Source: a virus (Duplodnaviria > Heunggongvirae > Uroviricota > Caudoviricetes). From it: DNA of 9,872 nucleotides. Where the stretch lies: IMG/VR virus record IMGVR_UViG_2663763428_000004. One strand, written 5' to 3'. Below the pieces are notes generated by a model that saw only the letters and a program-made list of their open reading frames with translations, was not told the DNA's origin and did not search any database. Positions 1 to 9,872 of the stretch are shown here, one piece after another (positions within the stretch are counted from its first letter, which is position 1; each line of letters begins with the position of its first letter). The position numbers and the translations under genes are program-made.

Positions 1-157
1 TAATCGTGTCCTCTGTGGTGGGTGTGGTGAATGTTATGTGTGGTTTGTGAGTAGTGTCCTGTGCATAGTCAGGTGTGTGTTTATGTAGAACTTAGGCGAC
101 CACCGAGATCTACACATTTATATTCGGCGGCAGCGTCAGATGTGTAGAAGAGAGTAG
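1..157. other. Non-biological library-adapter read-through at contig end (Illumina P5 sequence, 8-nt index-like spacer, degenerate Nextera read-1 / Tn5 mosaic-end sequence)
   Basis: 95-115 ggcgaccaccgagatctacac exactly matches the 3' part of the P5 adapter. 116-123 is an 8-nt index-like spacer. 124-157 tcggcggcagcgtcagatgtgtagaagagagtag matches TCGTCGGCAGCGTCAGATGTGTATAAGAGACAG apart from a few substitutions to G. 1-94 is GT-rich junk typical of reading past the adapter. Confidence 0.8.
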
Positions 158-693
158 GTAATACCCAAATCCTTGCATCTTTTCGATATTTCCTCATCGA
201 AGAAATACATTACTGTATTTGAAATAATGGGAGAAGAAGGTGCTCCAACACTTAGGCGTAACGGGCTATTTCTTCTTAACTTCCAGAAGAAAAGATTTTT
301 AAGAACAAAGATATCAGTATCAGTTAGTTCAACGCCATAATCTTTTAAGACAGATAAAAGATTATGGGGTTTGATACTCATAAAAAAGTTTTTAAAATCC
401 ATTTTAAGCAAATAATCATTATTACAATGCATTAACGCATTAGATCTAATACTTTTATCGGCTTCATAAGCGAAAGCATTTTCATGAACTTTCAAATTAG
501 CCAACATATGATTGATTACTACCTTCTGTAAGGCTTTAACTTGCCTAGCTGGTTGTGCAATTAATCTATATCCATTACCATTTCTTTTGGCGATAGGATA
601 AATTTTATATCTGCGTGGAATAGTAACAATATACCTTTTAGCCTCTTCTTCGCTAAGAAAAAGACCTTTTGAAATATAACTTAGCAACTCCAT
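158..693 (-). CDS. Retron-type reverse transcriptase, 3'-truncated fragment (N-terminal part through motif B; contig ends just before the expected YxDD box)
   Basis: ORF-track entry 136..708. Retron-RT blocks read directly: YIVTIPRRYKIYPIAKRNGNGYRLIAQPARQVKALQ (compare Ec86 RIYTVEKKG..RTIYQPSRELKALQ), motif A LKMDFKNFF, motif B LSVGAPSSPIISN. Preferred start is the ATG at 693-691, preceded by GGAGG; the track start at 708 is a GTG. The last ~7 codons and the stop at 136-157 are adapter-derived. Confidence 0.85.
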
Positions 694-694
694 T

Positions 695-1681
695 CTAAGC
701 CCCTCCACGCACGATATTGATTTGATTTAGAGCATTTTTCCTTTTTTTTGCAGTCTCGTCCATATCTTTAGCATCCATACTTAAGTAAGATTGTCGGATT
801 GCAACCTTAATATTCATAGAATCCTTTATTTTACCACTAGCACTGATACCAAATTTAAGTTTACTCTCTCTATGCCCTCGGGAATAGAAGTAGTCTGTAC
901 CACTGTAAGATAATGATGAGGTTAATTTCATCTTTTCAAGCAAATAAAGTAAACGAGTTATTATTTTTTGTGGCACATCTATATCCATACAGTATAGTGC
1001 CCACTCTATTTCGCTTTTCTTGATTGGTTCTGATAAAAGGATTATTTCGTAAATCAATATAGCTAGGTGCCCAGTATTTTCAGGGTTATATCGCTCCGTT
1101 TTTTTTACACGTTTTAATCTAGAATGAATATCATGGTAGATAAGCTCAACCTCATCATATTTCATACGATCCGATTTTGGCCATGGATAAACTGATACTG
1201 AGGCCTCATCTATTTTTTTAAGATACTCCAAAGGGCCTAAATATATAAAAGAAGATCTAGCAGGAATATTTTTTCGTTCATTTCCCTCAATCTCCTCAAA
1301 TGGTGCGACTACATGCAATTTTTGAGCTAGAGACTTCCTATTAACAAATAATCCAAGCTCAACTAACGAACCTGCACTTTCTAAACAGATAACAACTAAT
1401 GTTGAAATATTTGCAATATCATCTTCAAAGCTCATTAGATCTGAATATGCCCCCTCTCTGAAGTAGTCATGGAAGTTCTCAGCTAAAATAAGAGAATCTG
1501 ACAATTCAGGTTTGTGGCCTGCTACATAAGTAAATATGTGGTCTCGTACACTCATTGGAGTGGAATTTATCGGCCCACCACAAACAAAAATAATAGGAGG
1601 CATGAACTGAACAGTGAAATTTGAATATTTCAAATCTCCAAACTGCTCTTGTAATGCATTCATATATGCAGAATCACTCAC
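695..1681 (-). CDS. Retron effector candidate with nucleoside 2-deoxyribosyltransferase-like (NDT-like) N-terminal domain, RcaT/Ec86-effector-like
   Basis: 328-aa ORF immediately upstream of the RT on the same strand (stop TAG 697-695, RT ATG 693). N-terminal IIFVCGGP followed by ESAGSLVELG, which resembles the NDT catalytic-glutamate motif (compare DVGLGMELGY). AT-rich like the RT. Start is uncertain: GTG at 1681 per the track, or ATG at 1663. Confidence 0.7.
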   Translation of the reverse strand: MSDSAYMNALQEQFGDLKYSNFTVQFMPPIIFVCGGPINSTPMSVRDHIFTYVAGHKPELSDSLILAENFHDYFREGAYSDLMSFEDDIANISTLVVICLESAGSLVELGLFVNRKSLAQKLHVVAPFEEIEGNERKNIPARSSFIYLGPLEYLKKIDEASVSVYPWPKSDRMKYDEVELIYHDIHSRLKRVKKTERYNPENTGHLAILIYEIILLSEPIKKSEIEWALYCMDIDVPQKIITRLLYLLEKMKLTSSLSYSGTDYFYSRGHRESKLKFGISASGKIKDSMNIKVAIRQSYLSMDAKDMDETAKKRKNALNQINIVRGGA

Positions 1682-1689
1682 CCTTGTGA

Positions 1690-1905
1690 CCCCCTACTCC
1701 AAAAGAAAAGGTGGCTAACCAGCCACCTTCGACCCCTTTACCTAAAGGATGCGCTTTAGACTTTCAGCAAGATCCTGAATGGAACGCAGTGGCATGAAGG
1801 ATCTTGCTGAAAGTGCTAAAGCGCAACCCTAAATGTCCACAATAAATTAGTGTCTGGCGAAACGCCCGACAAGGATAAACCTGTTATCCCGCGCGTAAAG
1901 GTAGG
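1690..1905 (-). ncRNA. Candidate retron msr-msd non-coding RNA (structure-based guess; boundaries approximate)
   Basis: Non-coding stretch directly upstream of the effector and RT. Interrupted 26-bp hairpin at 1751-1824 (perfect 16-bp core 1761-1776 / 1798-1813, 21-nt loop). Further hairpins at 1708-1729, 1857-1867 and around 1872-1888. Possible minus-strand promoter: -35 TTGAAA (plus 1931-1936), -10 TATCCT (plus 1909-1914). No a1/a2 repeat pair or branching G identified. Confidence 0.35.
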
Positions 1906-2261
1906 GTTAGGATAGCAAAAGATGCGAGATTTTCAATAAGTAAGCGTACTGGCTGCCAGCAACCACCTAAACCATTGACATTTAAACAAAAATAAATCTA
2001 ACAATTGAAAGCAATACCTTATTGAATACAGCATTCTTATATCTCTCTTGATATCGCAACATCACAATTATCACCGTTAGTGCGGGCAGCCCCGCACGCC
2101 TGCCCGCTTCGCTTAACAGACTGGTTTTCATGCACCTCATTAATCGTCTCAGAAGCCAGCACACAAGGGTTTTCTCGTCAAAAATGGTGCATAAGACTCA
2201 TGCGTTTTCATGCGCCATAGACATGCACTCATGCGCTCTCATGTCAGCCAGGAAAAGGGGG

Positions 2262-2290
2262 TAAAAAATCCCGGTACTGGACCGGGATTA
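2262..2290 (-). terminator. Rho-independent terminator ending the sid-psu-ogr operon
   Basis: Stem tcccggt (2269-2275) / accggga (2281-2287), 5-nt loop, A-run 2263-2268 on plus strand giving a U6 tract after the stem on the minus strand; about 20 nt downstream of the ogr stop. Confidence 0.6.
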
Positions 2291-2308
2291 CGTGGGCGTT
2301 CTTTCTAA

Positions 2309-2581
2309 TCAGACAGGAATCTGCTGACGGCTTGACAGTTTTGACGCGGAGCCATAGCGATTGAGCGTTTTCTGTTGTTTTTCCGGGGATTGTGCTTTGT
2401 CTGATAGCTGTTCATTGCGCCGGGGTTTCATGATTATCTTATCCACACTCTCCAGTGCCGTAAATGTGCAGGAACATTCCAGATTCTGGCACTGATACCA
2501 CGAGCGTTTAACTGACGGAGCTTCATAGGCTGCTGTTCTGGCGTGTGCAACTGTACCGCATTCCGGACATTTAAGTGCCAT
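2309..2581 (-). CDS. ogr: Ogr/Delta-family zinc-finger late-gene transcriptional activator (single Ogr-like domain)
   Basis: MALKCPECGTVAHARTAAYEAPSVKRSWYQCQNLECSCTFTALESV matches the P2 Ogr C-x2-C...C-x4-C block (compare HCPLCQHAAHARTSRY..RYHQCQNVNCSATF as I recall it). Preferred start is ATG 2581-2579 with AGGAG 8 nt upstream; the track start at 2590 is a GTG. Confidence 0.85.
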   Translation of the reverse strand: MALKCPECGTVAHARTAAYEAPSVKRSWYQCQNLECSCTFTALESVDKIIMKPRRNEQLSDKAQSPEKQQKTLNRYGSASKLSSRQQIPV

Positions 2582-2586
2582 TAATA

Positions 2587-3138
2587 TCACTCCTGTATAT
2601 CGTTAATGTCATTCAGGCGTTGCTGAAAACGCAGATGTTGTGCCGGGGTGTAAGAACCCTGGCAATCACGAATCATCCCGGGGTCAGGCATCAAACCGGA
2701 TTCATCCAGGATCTCACGATAATCCCCGGCAATTTCAGGCGGTGTTATTGCCAGCTGGCGAACCAGAGCACTGCGTAATATACGGGACGCAACGTCAACC
2801 CCTCCGCGCCCCTTCAGGAACGGAGCCAGTGCAGATGTCAGGGCTGCCCCATTCGCCTGCATAAAATTGCTGAGAGCGGCTTCTGTGCAGGCCTCCATCA
2901 GTAAATGCTGCGAGTAAATGCATTCGCGCGCAGCACAGTTAATTTGCCATTTCAGCACATCCAGACGTTCCCGCAGTAATTCGAGCTGTCGGGCATAATC
3001 TGCTGGTTTTTCTGTGGCAGCGAGGAGAGATGTTATCTGTTGTTCAACGGCTTTTCGGCTCTCATTATGTCCGGCCCACAGAATACGGGCATTCCGAAAA
3101 CTGGTAAGTGCCTGGTCAGGCGTGCCTCGGGCCGTCAT
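2587..3138 (-). CDS. psu: Psu-like polarity suppression protein (Rho antagonist / capsid decoration protein of P4-type satellites)
   Basis: 183 aa. Blocks KWQINCAARECIYSQ, FMQANGAALTSALAPFL and YTPAQ resemble P4 Psu as I recall it. AGGAG upstream of ATG 3138; ATGA overlap with the preceding gene. Confidence 0.7.
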   Translation of the reverse strand: MTARGTPDQALTSFRNARILWAGHNESRKAVEQQITSLLAATEKPADYARQLELLRERLDVLKWQINCAARECIYSQHLLMEACTEAALSNFMQANGAALTSALAPFLKGRGGVDVASRILRSALVRQLAITPPEIAGDYREILDESGLMPDPGMIRDCQGSYTPAQHLRFQQRLNDINDIQE

Positions 3139-3878
3139 ACTGCTTTCTCCTTCTCAGCAAGTTCCTGACGAACCTTAATTTTATGCATAGCTGCCGGAGA
3201 GAGTTGATTACTGAAATCCAGACGCGCCGCATAATCCGGGGCAACTCCCGCCAGTTTAAACACCGGGTCCTGCTCAGGCATCGCATCGTTAGCCAGAGCC
3301 GGTCTGGTGATATGTTTATGAATAAAGTCTTTCAGCACTGTGTCCGGGTCATTAACTGAATTCACCACACCCACAACGGCACTGGCTTCCCGGCCCATTG
3401 TGGATTTAAGCAGGCTCAGCGTCTGAATAAGCGCTTTTCCATGCGACTGCATAAAATCCTCCCAGATTTGTTTTGCGCGAATATCCACAAGAATGTTATG
3501 CGCGTGGATATACTTTCCGGCTAATTCTGCAGCTTTCTGCGGCAAAAGTGCATTTTCGCTTTCCTGAGCCGCCAGCAGCTCATCAAAATCCTCAAGCGTT
3601 TCTCGTCCCAGCGCAATTTCCGTGCGCAGTTTTTTCATTTCCTTTGAGACCACGCCCTGACTTTCACGAAACAGCGTGCGCCACTCCTCATTCAGTGTGT
3701 TCGTCGTGGCTTCCATTTCAGCGCGACGCTGGCGGATTGTCGCAATATTATCCGCTGCCGCTTTCTGCTGACGACGTGCTTCAAGCCATGCGTTTCTGGC
3801 TGTGTTCATGGTTTCCAGTGCCCGCTGCGTTACAGCCGGAAAAGTGGAAAGGTTGTTATTCACTGCGGTGTTGTTCAT
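3135..3878 (-). CDS. sid: Sid-like capsid size-determination (external scaffold) protein, Sid/Psu family
   Basis: 247 aa, first gene after the iteron region, AGGAG before ATG 3878, translationally coupled to psu. Predicted helical and charged-residue rich. WRTLFRESQGVVSKE and FMQSHGKALIQTL resemble Sid/Psu-family blocks. Assignment rests mainly on synteny with psu and ogr. Confidence 0.55.
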   Translation of the reverse strand: MNNTAVNNNLSTFPAVTQRALETMNTARNAWLEARRQQKAAADNIATIRQRRAEMEATTNTLNEEWRTLFRESQGVVSKEMKKLRTEIALGRETLEDFDELLAAQESENALLPQKAAELAGKYIHAHNILVDIRAKQIWEDFMQSHGKALIQTLSLLKSTMGREASAVVGVVNSVNDPDTVLKDFIHKHITRPALANDAMPEQDPVFKLAGVAPDYAARLDFSNQLSPAAMHKIKVRQELAEKEKAV

Positions 3879-3912
3879 GACTTCTCCTGTCGGGTTGGTT
3901 CGTTACGTCAAT

Positions 3913-3968
3913 TGTGTCGTGGCTGACACAAGCACACTATCGGTGCTCAGTGTGTGGTGGCTGGCACA
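3913..3968 (-). promoter_or_regulatory. Two TGT-N12-ACA dyads (candidate Ogr/Delta-dependent late promoter upstream of sid)
   Basis: tgtgtcgtggctgacaca at 3913-3930 and tgtgtggtggctggcaca at 3951-3968, each TGT-N12-ACA; the distal one is centred about 81 nt upstream of the sid ATG. Confidence 0.45.
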
Positions 3969-4054
3969 ACGGACGCTTGCGGTTATTCAGACGTGGCTAT
4001 GAAAGCCAGCCAGATAAAAATGCCCTCTGTTTCAGTCTGCTTTATGTCCCTGAT

Positions 4055-4252
4055 GCGGTGGAACAGGTGAAACATGTGTTACAGCTTTGTTTTATAAGGC
4101 ATTTATATACACTGCACCGGTGGAACATCGCGGGTAACAAGGTGGAACAGCGGATTGGCTGGCGTTACATCTGTTCCACCTCACTATTTCAGAAGGTGGA
4201 ACAGGTTCAGCCCTGTAAAATACGGTTGTTCCACCTGTTTCACCTGTTACCC
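4055..4252. repeat. Iteron cluster (candidate crr/ori-like replication element bound by the adjacent primase)
   Basis: GGTGGAACAG/T at 4057-4066, 4119-4128, 4141-4150, 4195-4204; inverted (C/T)TGTTCCACC at 4171-4180 and 4226-4235; variants GTGAAACA 4067-4074, TGTTTCACC 4236-4244, GGGTAACA/TGTTACCC 4132-4139 and 4245-4252. Lies in the non-coding gap just after the primase stop. Confidence 0.6.
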
Positions 4253-4278
4253 TTAATAAATAAGACTCACGCAAAGCC

Positions 4279-6951
4279 TTAACCCGGCACCTCGCTGTTG
4301 AAGACATAGAGCCTGCGGGGATTCATCTCTGGCGGGCGAATGGTTGTCTGGAGTTTGCCATCAGTGGAGGGCAGCAGGTATCCACGATCTGCGCACAGAC
4401 GCGCCACCTTGCGCGGGTCAAATCCCCTGCAGATTTCTTTCCAGCCGGACGGCATGACATAGAACGTAGTGACAGCTTCCGTGCCCTGCGCGGTACTGCC
4501 TTTCTCCACCCTGCGCCAGCCCACCATATTGCCGGGGCGGTTGCGCTCGTCATACCAGTCTGCAAAGCGGCTGTACTGATTCGCGGTAAAGAAACTGCGA
4601 ACCTGCTCCAGTGCGGCGATATCTTCCTGATTGGCGGTGTGCCCGCGATCTTTCAGCCATGCGTTCAGGCAGACGCGGGTTGCCCGCAGTGCTTCACCCT
4701 CAGGCCAGCCGGTGATACCCAGACGGGTTGCCAGTTCACCTGCCATCGCCACCAGAGCAAAGCGGTTCACAGCCCGGCCCACCTGATTGCCTGCATCTTT
4801 CGGAGTCAGGGCGGCAGCATATTCCTTCATCAGCGATTTTGCCTGTGCCGTTAGTCCGTTAAGATCAGCGGTCAGTGCTTTCAGCCACTCCCGGAACGGC
4901 GAACCGTAGTAGCAGGACGTGGCCCATTCAAGATGCTCTGCCAGAGCCTTGCCGCTGTCGAAGCCGTGCAGCTCCTCAAAAACGCCAAACTTCCCGGAAT
5001 CGCTGGGGATCTGGATCATCCTGACTTCCATCCCGGCAAAAGTACGCTCACCGGCCTTTGCCGCATGTTCGGTCAGAGACAACTCGCCAGTTGAAAAGAA
5101 CAACAGGCGCCAATGCTTACGGGTACGCAGCTCACCGTCCGTACCGGCACGGCCCTTGCCCTGACCGTTTGCCAGCATGTAGGCGATATTGCCTGCCTCG
5201 CGTCCGTCAACTTCCCGGATCTCATCAAGCATCATGGCGGCATCGTTGCGGCGGCTGGCGCATCCCTCCAGCGCGTTGCCGGTGGCCCGCCATGTCTGCC
5301 AGTAGTCAGGCCCGCCGCAGACGGAGGTTGCCGCTTTCATGGTGGTGGTCTTACCGTCTGTCGATTCCCCTTTGAGGTGGTAGCCGCCGCCGTCCATACC
5401 AACCAGCCGTAACAGTGGTGCAGCAAAGGCCAGGCTGACAGCAAATGCCACGCGGGAGTTGCCGGTACAGTAGCGGGATACATGCTCCCGCCATTCCTCT
5501 GTTGTGCCCGACACGCGGAAATCACGCCCCTGCACGGAAGTGGTCTGGAGAATGACACCCTCTGCACCTTCACCGCTGACCTCATCCTGCAGGACGTAAA
5601 CCTGACCATGCCAGCCAGTACGACTGACGCAGGTCACGCGGCGTTCCGGTTTACACAGTGAGATATATTCCATCAGGCGTGCGCGTGCCTCACCGGTGGT
5701 GCTGATATAAGACAGCCCGTTAACCAGCAATACCCGGCGCAGTTCCTCACCACTGCCGCTCAGCATTTCCATCGGCATCGCCCAGCGGCGACACTCACCC
5801 CACGTATCTTCCCATTCCAGCAGTCGTCCGAAGTTACCGCCATCGGCATCGCAGGTGATTGCCGTCACGCGCAGCGGGCTGCATATTTTGACGTTCTGGA
5901 TCTCCGTCTCACCGTTGCGCTGTACCTGCTTTTCATACCAGAGATATTCCTGGGTAAGACGGAACCCGTGCGGCAGTTGCGTGCGGCCCTCCCCGCACAG
6001 CACCAGACCGTTACGAAAGGCTTCACGGGCGCGGGTAATACCGTGCTCCCGATGGAAGTCATTCCAGTCGGCCTTAATCTCTCCCGGTGGCAGCGTCATC
6101 CAGCCGCCAACAGCTTTTGCCGCCCGTTCAGCAAAGGCTCTGCCGGGATTCTCACCCCCGTCCTGAAAATCGTTATCACCGGCGATGATAATTTTTACCT
6201 CAGGCCAGCGTGCCCGCAGCGACTGCGCCACATTGGGCAGGTTGCCCGCAGATATGGCAGCCACTACGCATCCGGCAGTGAGCTGACTTACCGTCAGCGC
6301 CGTAGCGTAACCTTCGGTAATCACCACCTGTACCGGTGGTTCAGACGGTAACGGGCTGAGCGACACAAACGCGCCTTTCATCGTGCTGCCGGGCAGTATG
6401 CTTTTTTCACCCGTCGGGGCGATAAGCTGTGCACCAGTCACGGCTCCGGTGTTGGTCGTGAGTGGTAACAGCAGGGAACCGGCAGGAAAATCCTTACCGC
6501 TGATATGCTGCACGCTTCCGGTCAGAGAGGCCGGGTATCCGGCGAACCCTTTTCCTGTCAGATAGGCGCTTTCTCCCGTGTGGCTCTCTTTCATCAGCGC
6601 CGCCACGGTAAGACCCATGTCGCGTTTAGGGGCTTTTTTTCTGGCAGGCTTAACAGGCAGTTCCTGCACATCCGGCACATTAAGCACCTGCGCCACCTCC
6701 TGCGCAGCCTTTCTGACGCTGTAACCGGTTACGAGCTTAACCAGATCCAGACCGTCACCATTGCCACACTGGCTGCAGATCCACGTCCCGCGCCCGTCAA
6801 GGTCATCAAGGCGAAAACGATCCTTGCCCCCACATTTCGGGCAGGGACCGTGCCTGCCGTTTTCAGGTACATCAATACGCAGCATCTGGAGAATAACGGG
6901 CCATTTCCCCCGTGCGGCGGCTGAAATCTGCGTAACCGTCTGTATTGTCAT
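4279..6951 (-). CDS. Satellite primase-helicase, P4 alpha-like (N-terminal zinc ribbon, TOPRIM, C-terminal P-loop NTPase)
   Basis: 890 aa. CPKCGG..(x19)..CSQCG zinc ribbon (coded about 6766-6843); TOPRIM-like VVITEGYATA...IIIAGDND; Walker A GESTDGKTT. ATG 6951 with GGGGGA upstream; ATGA overlap with the upstream gene. Confidence 0.9.
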   Translation of the reverse strand: MTIQTVTQISAAARGKWPVILQMLRIDVPENGRHGPCPKCGGKDRFRLDDLDGRGTWICSQCGNGDGLDLVKLVTGYSVRKAAQEVAQVLNVPDVQELPVKPARKKAPKRDMGLTVAALMKESHTGESAYLTGKGFAGYPASLTGSVQHISGKDFPAGSLLLPLTTNTGAVTGAQLIAPTGEKSILPGSTMKGAFVSLSPLPSEPPVQVVITEGYATALTVSQLTAGCVVAAISAGNLPNVAQSLRARWPEVKIIIAGDNDFQDGGENPGRAFAERAAKAVGGWMTLPPGEIKADWNDFHREHGITRAREAFRNGLVLCGEGRTQLPHGFRLTQEYLWYEKQVQRNGETEIQNVKICSPLRVTAITCDADGGNFGRLLEWEDTWGECRRWAMPMEMLSGSGEELRRVLLVNGLSYISTTGEARARLMEYISLCKPERRVTCVSRTGWHGQVYVLQDEVSGEGAEGVILQTTSVQGRDFRVSGTTEEWREHVSRYCTGNSRVAFAVSLAFAAPLLRLVGMDGGGYHLKGESTDGKTTTMKAATSVCGGPDYWQTWRATGNALEGCASRRNDAAMMLDEIREVDGREAGNIAYMLANGQGKGRAGTDGELRTRKHWRLLFFSTGELSLTEHAAKAGERTFAGMEVRMIQIPSDSGKFGVFEELHGFDSGKALAEHLEWATSCYYGSPFREWLKALTADLNGLTAQAKSLMKEYAAALTPKDAGNQVGRAVNRFALVAMAGELATRLGITGWPEGEALRATRVCLNAWLKDRGHTANQEDIAALEQVRSFFTANQYSRFADWYDERNRPGNMVGWRRVEKGSTAQGTEAVTTFYVMPSGWKEICRGFDPRKVARLCADRGYLLPSTDGKLQTTIRPPEMNPRRLYVFNSEVPG

Positions 6952-7331
6952 ACTTCCCCCTGATACAACGTCACACCGGTACTGCAGAAGTCATCAAAGG
7001 CCGCCGGAAGCGTGCGGTACATCTCCGCCATCACTTCACAGCCGCGCGCGGTCAGTACCGGCGGCGCGGTCAGCAGTGACGGCTCCAGCATGTCAGTCAG
7101 CAGTGCCAGCGCGGCAGCGGCGCCCTGTGCTTCGCCGTACTCGTTAATCAGTACGCACTCGATATGCAGCGCAATGGCCATTTCAATACGCTCCACCGTC
7201 AGGCTGTGCGGACCATACTGATCACTGCCAGTTTCGTTCAGCATTTTCTGCCGCCATGCTGAAGCAATAGCCCGCCGGTAAAGCGCGGTGGTCATTTCTG
7301 CCGGGAAAATGGAAACCTGCGGCTGGTTCAT
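6948..7331 (-). CDS. Hypothetical protein (127 aa), translationally coupled upstream of the primase
   Basis: ATG at 7331; ATGA overlaps at both ends; GC content like the satellite core. No motif recognised. Confidence 0.6.
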   Translation of the reverse strand: MNQPQVSIFPAEMTTALYRRAIASAWRQKMLNETGSDQYGPHSLTVERIEMAIALHIECVLINEYGEAQGAAAALALLTDMLEPSLLTAPPVLTARGCEVMAEMYRTLPAAFDDFCSTGVTLYQGEV

Positions 7332-7612
7332 CTGGCACCTCCTTCAATCAGTGCGCAGCTGTGTGCAATATCCGTCAAATCTGCCAGCAGGTACTCCATC
7401 AGCGCGGCGACACCATGCGCACAGCCAGCGTCCAGTGCTCCGGCCTGAGACGGGTATTCAGAAAAGAGAAGCTGGAGCATGTCGCAGGCATTTCTTGCGC
7501 GGGTCAGTTTTCCGAAACTGTCCTCTGACAACCCATAGGCAAAAGCACCGGTATTGTGTTTTTCAGGCAAAGTGTGGCCCTGAGCACCGTTGTGCCCGTT
7601 TGAAATATTCAT
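7328..7612 (-). CDS. Hypothetical protein (94 aa)
   Basis: ATG 7612 with GGAG upstream; ATGA overlap with the next gene. No motif recognised. Its position is analogous to the small regulators upstream of alpha in P4, but that is positional only. Confidence 0.5.
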   Translation of the reverse strand: MNISNGHNGAQGHTLPEKHNTGAFAYGLSEDSFGKLTRARNACDMLQLLFSEYPSQAGALDAGCAHGVAALMEYLLADLTDIAHSCALIEGGAR

Positions 7613-7643
7613 CGTGGATTACTCCGTTTTCAGCGGTATTTTG

Positions 7644-8003
7644 TCAGAGAAACTTTGAATAGTGACCGTCGTCAGGCTCAGCAGAACGCCGTATGCTACG
7701 CTCCCGCCAGCGGATAAATAGCACAGACGGATGCAGTGTCAGCGGGCCGGAACCACTACCGCCAGCAGGAGCTGGTGCAGGCTTCAAGAGCGGTACATCA
7801 AACAGGCGCGTATACCGCTGTTCAAACCATGCCAGAGGGCAGGAAGAAAGCTGGTTGTCGCTGTCATGACGTATCAGCACTTCACAGCTGAATTCAGGAT
7901 TAACCAGCGCCACAGAGGGCGAGGCTTCTATTAATCGGATAATCGTGACCGTCCAGCCACGTTCATGCTGCCAGCGTTCGCCGGGGTGCGGATAATTACG
8001 CAT
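7644..8003 (-). CDS. Hypothetical protein (~119 aa)
   Basis: Track ORF 7644..8033 begins at a TTG; I prefer the ATG at 8003-8001, which is preceded by GGAGGTG. No motif recognised. Confidence 0.5.
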   Translation of the reverse strand: MRNYPHPGERWQHERGWTVTIIRLIEASPSVALVNPEFSCEVLIRHDSDNQLSSCPLAWFEQRYTRLFDVPLLKPAPAPAGGSGSGPLTLHPSVLFIRWRERSIRRSAEPDDGHYSKFL

Positions 8004-8172
8004 GTTCACCTCCGCAGGGAATGCGCCCGGCAAAGCTCAGTACATAGTCCGGGGCAAGTCTGCGCCGCGCTGACCGCTCGTTATCTGCGGTGATCCTTAA
8101 CATCACAGGACGGGCATTGCGTTGACTGCGGTTGATCGCCGCAAATAACCAGGTACACTTCTGTTTAGCCAT
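7996..8172 (-). CDS. Small basic hypothetical protein (58 aa), first gene of the leftward operon
   Basis: ATG at 8172-8170 preceded by GAGG; this is the 3' part of track ORF 7996..8730, whose upstream portion crosses the promoter and operator region and is not credible as coding. Confidence 0.35.
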   Translation of the reverse strand: MAKQKCTWLFAAINRSQRNARPVMLRITADNERSARRRLAPDYVLSFAGRIPCGGEHA

Positions 8173-8247
8173 CTTCGTTACCTCATTTAGCGGATTGGTC
8201 AGAAGCCCGGTTAGTGTTGCTGCACTGTCGGGCTTCGCACTCACAAG

Positions 8248-8340
8248 GTGAATCGCACCTTTAATTTTAAAGCTACCCTTAAGTGAATCGCACTTCAAGC
8301 TTTTTATTATCATTTTTTTTGCATATACTGAATCGCACCT
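8248..8340. promoter_or_regulatory. Three direct repeats (G/C)TGAATCGCAC(C/T)T in the divergent control region, with a candidate plus-strand promoter
   Basis: Repeats at 8248-8260, 8283-8295 and 8328-8340; -10-like TATACT at 8324-8329 abuts the third repeat; weak -35 TTTTTA at 8301-8306. Confidence 0.45.
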
Positions 8341-8359
8341 AACGCGAGGAGATCCAGTA

Positions 8360-8545
8360 ATGGCAACGAGTTCAACTAACAACAAGTCGCAGCAACTTAA
8401 TGCTCGTTTCCCACATGATGTAGTTGCAGAATTAGAAAGCAACCTTGAAGATGGAGAAACGAAAGCGCAATTCATTGTTACGGCTGTAAAAGGCGAGATT
8501 AAACGCCGACAGCGCAGGAAAAATAAGCCAGAGCAAGGTAGTTGA
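8360..8545 (+). CDS. Small ribbon-helix-helix (CopG/Arc-like) DNA-binding protein, candidate repressor
   Basis: 61 aa; GAGGAG 8 nt before the ATG; N-terminal ARFPHDVVAELESNL...AQFIVTAVKGEI fits the RHH strand-helix-helix pattern; basic C-terminal tail. No toxin partner downstream. Confidence 0.55.
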   Translation: MATSSTNNKSQQLNARFPHDVVAELESNLEDGETKAQFIVTAVKGEIKRRQRRKNKPEQGS

Positions 8546-8608
8546 ATAGAGAAGCCAACAGACGTTCTCTCTGTTTCCATGTTAATTTCAGTAAGCGACA
8601 ATATTTTT

Positions 8609-8642
8609 AAGCCCACAAATTCATTATGTCGGGCTTTTTTAT
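8609..8642 (+). terminator. Intrinsic terminator after the RHH gene
   Basis: Stem 8609-8617 / 8627-8636 with one bulge, 9-nt loop, then T6; sits between the convergent RHH and alpA genes. Confidence 0.5.
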
Positions 8643-8872
8643 TAGTGATTTTCATATCGCTCACCACGAGAGGCATATATTTGCTCTTGAATCCAGTGAT
8701 CCACTTCGCTTTCAACAAATGAAATTGCACGAGTTCCTATTTTCACCGGACGGGGAAATGTATTGTTTGCAAGCTGTTTGTAAAGCCATGCCTTGCTACG
8801 CTGAACGCGTCTTAAGACCTCTTTTGCTGAGATAAGAGTCTGATTATCTGAAAAGCTGTTTGCATATTCCAT
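8642..8872 (-). CDS. alpA: AlpA/Vis-family phage transcriptional regulator / excisionase-like protein
   Basis: LISAKEVLRRVQRSKAWLYKQLANNTFPRPVKIGTRAISFVESEVDHWI matches the AlpA helix-turn-helix pattern. Preferred start is ATG 8872 with GGAG upstream; the track start at 8917 is a GTG. Confidence 0.8.
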   Translation of the reverse strand: MEYANSFSDNQTLISAKEVLRRVQRSKAWLYKQLANNTFPRPVKIGTRAISFVESEVDHWIQEQIYASRGERYENH

Positions 8873-9248
8873 CTTGTTACTCCGTGTTCTACTTAAGTTC
8901 ACGGTGACTTTAAACACTGGGAAAAAGTGATTCTAGTGATAATGGAATCTATTAAGACAAATATTGATTCTATTGAAAAACAATAATCTCCACTGAAAAA
9001 AGAAGTAATATTCATATGAAAGAACACGGAGAGAAGGAAATGCACAAAAAAAACAAAATCAATAGAATTCATATGGATAGGATGGAAAATCAAAAAATCA
9101 TATGTCAAAAGGTATTATTGCATTTTAACGATTCATATTACCTAGGAATTAGCACAGTATTACACCATATTACATCGTATTACCCCCTATAGCCCGTTAG
9201 AGCCTCTTGTGGCCCTTCTATTGAGAGATAGCCAGAAAATTAATAAAT

Positions 9249-9851
9249 TTACTCTCCGTATTTTATAATGTCTTTCCCAAGCTTTATTTTCTTATAAAAC
9301 GTAGCTTTTTTAACCCCTTTCATTAGAATCTCATTCTCATTACAAAAAGAAACAATATCATTATATATAACACTATTATCGCTATAACTTACCTTTCCAT
9401 GTCTCTTAAGCAATTCAATTAGTAAATAAATTAATTTACAACTATAATTATCCTCATCATCTTTTCTGTACTGCCCTCTACCATTACTCCTTAATTTTTT
9501 ACCAACTTCATATAATTCACTTCCTCCTAACGTCATTAGAATATCACTCCAATCTTTATTTTTTACCTGTTGTCGTAATGCGTTCTCAATTCTCTCCTTA
9601 ATCTCCACAGGTACAATACCTTCCCTCTGAAAGATATAAGCGGCAGTTAATAATAAGTTCGCCTCCACTTTTTGCGTGGCGGATACGTTTTTATATTCAT
9701 TAATTAATTGTAGATTTCTGGTTATTGCCTTTCTTAATCTAATAACCTCTTTTAATTGAACCTCAGTCAATTCATCATTTTCGGTATCATAGTCAAAACC
9801 ATTCATAGCAAGCGCCACTTCGTGTGGCGTTATGTAAGTTACCCTATTAAA
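9249..9851 (-). CDS. AT-rich hypothetical protein, probably 5'-truncated by the contig end
   Basis: Track ORF 9249..9818 starts at a GTG. Neither that GTG nor the first ATG (9806) has a Shine-Dalgarno sequence, and the frame stays open up to the adapter at 9854. No recognisable motif. Confidence 0.55.
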   Translation of the reverse strand, partial: FNRVTYITPHEVALAMNGFDYDTENDELTEVQLKEVIRLRKAITRNLQLINEYKNVSATQKVEANLLLTAAYIFQREGIVPVEIKERIENALRQQVKNKDWSDILMTLGGSELYEVGKKLRSNGRGQYRKDDEDNYSCKLIYLLIELLKRHGKVSYSDNSVIYNDIVSFCNENEILMKGVKKATFYKKIKLGKDIIKYGE

Positions 9852-9853
9852 AT

Positions 9854-9872
9854 CTGTCTCTTATCAACATCT
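9854..9872. other. Non-biological Nextera mosaic-end remnant at contig end
   Basis: ctgtctcttatcaacatct matches CTGTCTCTTATACACATCT at 17 of 19 positions. Confidence 0.75.

Follow-up and report, generated by a model that had tools for sequence, protein, structure and literature searches.

Introduction

In the sid promoter of satellite P4 (Psid), Delta footprints reportedly lie at −55 and −18, and the −18 site is said to be dispensable for activation. The record of P4 (NC_001609) places sid at 9583, and the only exact TGT-N12-ACA dyads near this gene are at 9493–9510 and 9531–9548. The late genes of P2 and P4 are activated by both Delta and Ogr (PMC8628076, PMC7552001). Ogr binds inverted repeats centred near −55 and requires the alpha subunit of RNA polymerase (PMC3152322), and the consensus of the P2 late promoters is TGT-N12-ACA (PMC3931495). 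The psu, delta, and sid genes have been described as a single operon with a single promoter (published statement citing Reiter et al.). The P2 record annotates the late transcription starts together with the activator sites. The site shared by the PP and PO promoters, TGTGTCAGTGATAAGCCA, occupies −64 to −47 from both starts, with its centre at −55.5.

In this study, we analysed the region upstream of a sid homologue in the window, which is the whole 9,872-nt stretch of DNA deposited as IMGVR_UViG_2663763428_000004. An original prediction, made from the letters of the window, had proposed an Ogr/Delta-activated late promoter in this region. We put at roughly 0.8 the probability that the region serves a P4-like satellite of E. 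coli as its late (sid) promoter, located on the minus strand, Psid-like, and activated by Ogr/Delta.

Materials and methods

Homologous loci were collected by a Sid homologue search, a 24-sequence Sid alignment, and two collection scans. This yielded 67 loci, whose Sid proteins are 41–100% identical to that of the window. The scan of genome contigs returned only 7 close relatives; the diversity of the set came from the scan of viral contigs with the 24-sequence Sid alignment. Searching the phage collection for DNA similar to the promoter region gave zero matches, as did tblastn of Sid against phages.

Exact and one-mismatch TGT-N12-ACA dyads were located by pattern search of the window. The dyad pair was evaluated against 20,000 simulated windows generated with a first-order Markov model.

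Results

Satellite context of the window

Judged from its gene content and its genomic matches, the window is a P4-like phage satellite of E. coli. Positions 152–9853 are 100% identical to the chromosomes of many E. coli strains, and in NZ_CP028578.2 the region is a P4-like satellite adjoining tRNA-Leu. RefSeq context, Pfam, and PHROG matches identified the core genes of such satellites (int, an HTH regulator, primase, sid, psu, and ogr) beside tRNA-Leu. The scans that were run identified no epsilon/ash homologue. All satellite genes are on the minus strand of the window. The order of transcription is integrase (outside the window), a hypothetical gene, an AlpA-like gene, an Icd-like gene, two unknown genes, DUF5375, primase, sid, psu, ogr, and a retron. 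The iteron array located between the primase gene and the sid promoter is probably the satellite replication origin. The promoter stretch occurs in 331 of 5426 complete E. coli genomes (~6%), with no annotated feature under the match. The coordinates of the features are listed in Table 1.

Table 1. Features of the sid promoter region, the sid-psu-ogr operon, and the neighbouring satellite genes in the window.
Feature	Position	Strand	Remarks
Distal TGT-N12-ACA dyad	3951–3968	−	Sense strand TGTGCCAGCCACCACACA; exact match; predicted activator site, −64 to −47, centre −55.5
Proximal TGT-N12-ACA dyad	3913–3930	−	Sense strand TGTGTCAGCCACGACACA; exact match; −26 to −9, centre −17.5; overlaps promoter spacer and −10 hexamer
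Predicted −10 hexamer CACAAT	3911–3916	−	Inferred; CACAATT invariant in 12/12 clade representatives, including P4
Weak −35-like hexamer TAGTGT	3934–3939	−	17 nt 5′ of the −10; 2/6 match to TTGACA
Predicted transcription start (A)	3904	−	7 nt past the −10 hexamer; placed by this hexamer and by the −55.5 rule calibrated on P2-annotated starts
sid homologue, first operon gene	3135–3878	−	247 aa; PHROG 6165, E = 8.7e-93; P4 Sid, 24% identity, BLASTP E = 1e-12; weak Psu Pfam match
psu	2587–3138	−	183 aa; Pfam Psu, E = 1e-44; PHROG 6366, E = 4e-70; 4-nt overlap with the sid end
Single-domain ogr/delta-like activator gene, last operon gene	2309–2581	−	90 aa; Pfam Ogr_Delta, E = 1e-15; RefSeq annotation
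Intrinsic terminator after ogr	2261–2289	−	9-bp stem, 5-nt loop, U6; fold −13.8 kcal/mol, z = −2.3
Iteron array	4057–4244	both orientations	8 × GGTGRAACA vs 0.2 expected; AT-rich patch at ~4090–4112; between primase gene and sid promoter
TOPRIM/DUF927 primase	4279–6951	−	Followed by a 400-bp intergenic region before sid
DUF5375 gene	6948–7331	−	
AlpA-like HTH/excisionase-type gene	8642–8872	−	

The operon is followed by cargo. A retron St85 occupies 136–1681 (minus strand), with an effector matching NCBIfam STM3845_fam (E = 3.5e-66) and a reverse transcriptase matching Pfam RVT_1. Upstream of these genes, at ~1770–1850 (minus strand), a long inverted repeat is likely the msd. A scan with Rfam at gathering thresholds gave zero matches across the window. 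The string GGCGTGCGGGGCTGCCCGCAC at ~2080–2100 (minus strand) resembles the P2 cos end GGCGAGGCGGGGAAAGCAC when compared by eye. It is situated past the ogr terminator and ahead of the retron, at the place of cos in P4-like elements. Past the retron and outside the window, positions 1–3155 of locus L001 contain a frameshifted second integrase, an IS3 fragment, and a group II intron reverse transcriptase, which suggests a decayed neighbouring element or a composite island.

Both ends of the window are non-genomic. Positions 1–151 are unmatched in the E. coli record that matches 152–9853, and terminate with a noisy adapter (Illumina P5 / i5 index / Nextera read-1; ...GGCGACCACCGAGATCTACAC ATTTATAT TCGGCGGCAGCGTCAGATGTGTAGAAGA), which cuts the retron reverse-transcriptase ORF (136–708). 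Positions 9854–9872 (CTGTCTCTTATCAACATCT) are a Nextera mosaic end with errors.

The sid-psu-ogr operon

The overlap of sid and psu, the gap of 5 nt between psu and ogr, and the hairpin after ogr together define a compact sid-psu-ogr operon with the activator gene last. The product of this last gene shares 47% identity with P2 Ogr across 51 aa, and 45% with the first, N-terminal domain of P4 Delta. It carries a CX2CX22CX4C motif, as is characteristic of a cognate zinc-finger activator. The original prediction had placed the dyads upstream of sid and an Ogr-like gene of the element itself at the end of the same operon. The first assignment was borne out by the PHROG 6165 and P4 Sid BLASTP matches, and the second by the Pfam Ogr_Delta match, the tight packing of the genes, and the terminator.

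The hairpin after ogr was missed by the consensus terminator scan; it was spotted in the sequence and confirmed by folding. The scan also detected no intrinsic terminator between the primase gene and sid. Since the primase gene is co-directional with sid, some sid expression could therefore come from read-through.

Paired dyads upstream of sid

Two exact TGT-N12-ACA dyads, TGTGTCGTGGCTGACACA at 3913–3930 and TGTGTGGTGGCTGGCACA at 3951–3968, are present 35–90 nt 5′ of the ATG of the sid homologue (3878, minus strand). Their starts are 38 bp apart and they share 16 of 18 positions, in agreement with the two near-identical 18-bp elements that had been predicted. The description as near-identical holds for the clade of the window, but not as a family trait: identity between the two dyads is 8–13/18 in the other clades (9/18 in P4), compared with ~9 expected by chance. 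The near-identity of the two copies is thus peculiar to the window clade, and the family-wide trait is the presence of two TGT-N12-ACA dyads at a fixed spacing.

The motif itself is not enriched in the window. Three exact matches were found versus 2.21 expected, a count reached by 73 of 200 shuffles, and matches with one mismatch numbered 42 versus 45 expected. Enrichment alone therefore cannot support the claim of a regulatory site. The third exact match, at 2552–2569, is within the ogr gene and encodes the zinc-finger residues CPECGT, which include the first zinc-finger cysteines; hence, this match is coincidental, arising from the coding sequence, and has no regulatory role. The arrangement of the pair gave a different result. 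Any exact pair 18–60 bp apart was present in 2.15% of the 20,000 simulated windows, an exact pair at 38 or 39 bp in 0.08%, and a pair with at least 16/18 identical positions in none (0/20,000). Unlike the bare motif, the dyad pair is non-random.

Core promoter and predicted start

The predicted −10 hexamer agrees with the sigma-70 −10 consensus in its second base, A, and its sixth, T. The ACA of the proximal dyad is part of the invariant CACAAT. Because this ACA is inseparable from the −10 hexamer, only the proximal TGT is independent evidence for the proximal site. In the −35 region, T (3939) and G (3937), at −35 and −33, are the only positions invariant family-wide. A consensus sigma-70 promoter scan of the minus strand found no promoter in the intergenic region 3879–4278. 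The weak or absent −35 typical of activator-needing Ogr/Delta-type late promoters is thereby seen in the window. Transcription from the predicted start would produce a 25-nt leader, with AGGAG at 3884–3888.

Conservation across the Sid family

Both exact dyads, at a spacing of 38–39 bp, were present in all 36 distinct sid-upstream sequences obtained from the 67 loci and P4. Across these sequences, the start of the proximal dyad precedes the sid ATG by 50–54 nt. The distal TGT and ACA were invariant in 17 distinct family variants and likewise in alignment A3, and the proximal TGT was invariant in 12 distinct variants. In the 12-clade alignment, the invariant positions comprised the distal TGT and ACA, the proximal TGT, CACAATT, the T and G at −35 and −33, the AGG of the ribosome-binding site, and the ATG; C15 and A18, scattered farther upstream, were also invariant. 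All 12 TGT/ACA edge positions were among the 26 invariant columns of 120. The corresponding probability for a random draw of 12 columns is 9e-10, a value that is indicative only, because the aligned sequences are relatives of one another and thus not independent.

The N12 interiors are divergent and do not retain internal symmetry (0–4 of 6 pairs). They do not track the zinc finger of the activator: the fingers of the window and of the L025 clade are almost identical, and the interiors differ. Retention of two short half-sites with diverging interiors fits recognition by a protein, not a nucleic-acid stem. An Ogr-type zinc-finger gene is located 3′ of sid on the same strand in every sufficiently long locus, either directly after sid or after psu.

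Upstream of the distal dyad, all clades, including P4, have a conserved palindrome, CTGGCTnGCCAG, with CCTTT(T)C and AAGAAGG as its flanks. It lies just 5′ of the distal dyads in L039, L040, L042, L069, L035, and L047. The hairpin that it forms in several clades resembles a terminator, with a U-run adjoining the dyad. In the window, the palindrome is at 3994–4013 (minus strand, CTGGCTGGCTTTCATAGCCA); in the window clade it is expanded, 25 nt from the dyad, and without a U-run. The palindrome could shield sid from transcription arriving from upstream, or be a binding site for another factor.

Discussion

Proposed mechanism

Homology and conservation point to a probable dependence of the window promoter on Ogr/Delta. 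They likewise support, at the level of sequence, the helper-triggered and self-reinforcing activation of the capsid-hijack genes that the original prediction had proposed. An Ogr/Delta-family zinc-finger activator would bind the distal dyad, centred at ~−55.5. The activator would be supplied first by an infecting or induced P2-like helper and later by the satellite itself. Once bound, it would recruit RNA polymerase via the alpha subunit to a core with a usable −10, CACAAT, and almost no −35. Transcription would then proceed from ~3904 through sid, psu, and ogr, and stop at the hairpin after ogr. Because the operon ends with the activator gene, expression would be self-reinforcing once triggered.

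The two dyads are not equivalent, since only the distal one is at the activating position of −55.5, as counted from the predicted start. The proximal dyad, at ~−17.5, is best regarded as another site for the activator, with a tuning effect on the loop that most likely consists of a cap at high activator levels. Given its overlap with the spacer and the −10 hexamer, it is more likely to modulate the promoter, probably by limiting it, than to activate. This role is probable in view of the position of the site and of what is reportedly known of P4.

A more speculative extension is that the −17.5 dyad acts as a satellite-specific brake on the sid-psu-ogr loop or as a high-affinity sink for helper Ogr, together with helper-independent priming by read-through. 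We hold this only tentatively, and judge the odds to be against it. As a sink, the dyad would capture helper Ogr ahead of the imperfect sites of the helper. Priming by read-through is proposed on the basis that the proximal site is homogenised to the distal site in the window clade and that no terminator was detected between primase and sid.

Alternative explanations

Both dyads might instead be activating. Two activator dimers would then bind cooperatively, both would be required for full induction, and the proximal site would have no dampening effect. Such cooperation would account for a proximal TGT as invariant as the distal one across all clades, for the fixed spacing, which corresponds to roughly 3.6 helical turns, and for the near-identity of the two sites in the window clade. 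However, the site at −26 to −9 overlaps a surface that RNA polymerase must occupy, and a single −55 site, with no −18 dyad, is enough for P2 PP, PO, and PF. The −18 site of P4 is, moreover, said to be dispensable. We therefore consider cooperative activation unlikely, and favour activation from the distal dyad with modulation by the proximal one.

The iteron array raises a second alternative, as the dyads are only ~90 bp from these P4-ori-like repeats. The dyads could belong to the replication origin, or be bound by a different satellite protein, for example the primase/origin-binding protein or the AlpA-like regulator, and not by Ogr/Delta. This is very improbable. The dyads are unlike the GGTGRAACA iterons, and match the motif and the offset of the P2-annotated activator sites. 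In addition, they keep a fixed distance from the sid ATG and the −10, whereas the stretch separating them from the iterons differs between clades in both length and content.

An explanation by RNA structure was rejected, because RNAalifold found zero conserved pairs in the 12-clade alignment and the fold of the sense strand was unremarkable, being no better than that of shuffles (z = −1.6). The inverted repeats would in that case be RNA hairpins, acting as an attenuator or a terminator in a primase read-through transcript. Each dyad in the window clade can indeed form a 4–6 bp stem, and a fold of −31.2 kcal/mol (z = −2.8) was obtained for the plus strand of the 71-nt region. Even so, conservation is confined to the outer 3 + 3 bases of the dyads, which, with the poor internal symmetry, fits protein recognition; we give hairpins hardly any credence. 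The two matches might also be chance copies of a low-information motif, of which 2.2 are expected per window and which is not enriched in this one. This explanation has a negligible probability and is already refuted by the comparative data, as P4 and each of the 36 distinct homologous upstream regions have the same layout. The rarity of such a pair in the simulations also speaks against it.

Comparison with known systems

The window shares the layout of P4 Psid. Comparison of the two, as proposed with the original prediction, revealed two exact TGT-N12-ACA dyads with a spacing identical base for base (38 bp) and an identical distance of 34 nt from the end of the proximal dyad to the sid ATG. 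In both elements, CACAAT overlaps the proximal ACA, an ori iteron array is present just upstream, and the promoter precedes sid, psu, and an Ogr-family activator gene. The P4 array is annotated as ori type-1 repeats, GGTGAACAG, at the same place upstream of sid. With a P4 start at 9557, the distal and proximal dyads of P4 are at −64 to −47 and −26 to −9, the same as in the window. The feature that distinguishes the two-site Psid subtype, a second dyad ~38 bp downstream, near −18 and directly upstream of sid, is present in the window.

Beyond this layout, the two satellites differ. The Sid proteins are only 24% identical, and the operon order is sid-psu-ogr in the window versus sid-delta-psu in P4. 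The activator of the window has one zinc-finger domain (90 aa), whereas P4 Delta has two (166 aa). The alpA-to-primase block is co-directional with sid in the window but divergent in P4. The two dyads are far more alike in the window (16/18) than in P4 (9/18), and the distal site of the window resembles the distal site of P4 in the opposite orientation (15/18). A PLL-type exact dyad was not found upstream of the AlpA-like gene (8873–9248), where only AT-rich one-mismatch matches occurred at chance level; the element thus seems to be without an equivalent of PLL, the second late promoter of P4. The only other exact dyads in the L001 satellite region are inside the ogr and int coding sequences. 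The stretch 8873–9248 is very AT-rich, unlike the remainder of the element.

The comparison with the P2 late promoters, also proposed with the original prediction, gave an equal predicted offset: the distal dyad centre would be at −55.5 from the predicted start 3904, as the PP/PO site is from its annotated starts. The window and the P2 late promoters also share a poor −35, and the left half-site TGTGTCAG is common to the window and PO. The P2 sites are imperfect, with TGT-N12-CCA (one mismatch) in PP/PO and PF and, by eye, an 11-nt spacing in PV. A second dyad at −18 is absent from all P2 late promoters (PP, PO, PV, and PF) but present in the window, which makes the paired layout a satellite feature.

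The PpsR/CrtJ operators of purple bacteria, in the portions of the literature consulted, have the same written consensus, TGT-N12-ACA, and are often paired. They are bound by unrelated regulators of alpha- and betaproteobacterial phototroph hosts and serve repression, and no PpsR is present in the context of the window. We rejected this likeness as one of notation only, irrelevant to the satellite context.

These comparisons leave the accepted picture of helper-triggered, self-reinforcing late expression unchanged. A specific regulatory element, including a predicted start, can now be assigned to an unannotated intergenic stretch. That the −18 site is invariant family-wide adds modestly to the accessible literature, and makes the role of this site worth testing. 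The conserved layout also provides a search rule for satellite late promoters: two TGT-N12-ACA dyads 38–39 bp apart, the second fused to CACAAT, ~50 nt before sid. The two-site Psid architecture is not a peculiarity of P4, but an invariant of the P4-like family down to 24% Sid identity, and the window promoter is a divergent further example of this known promoter type.
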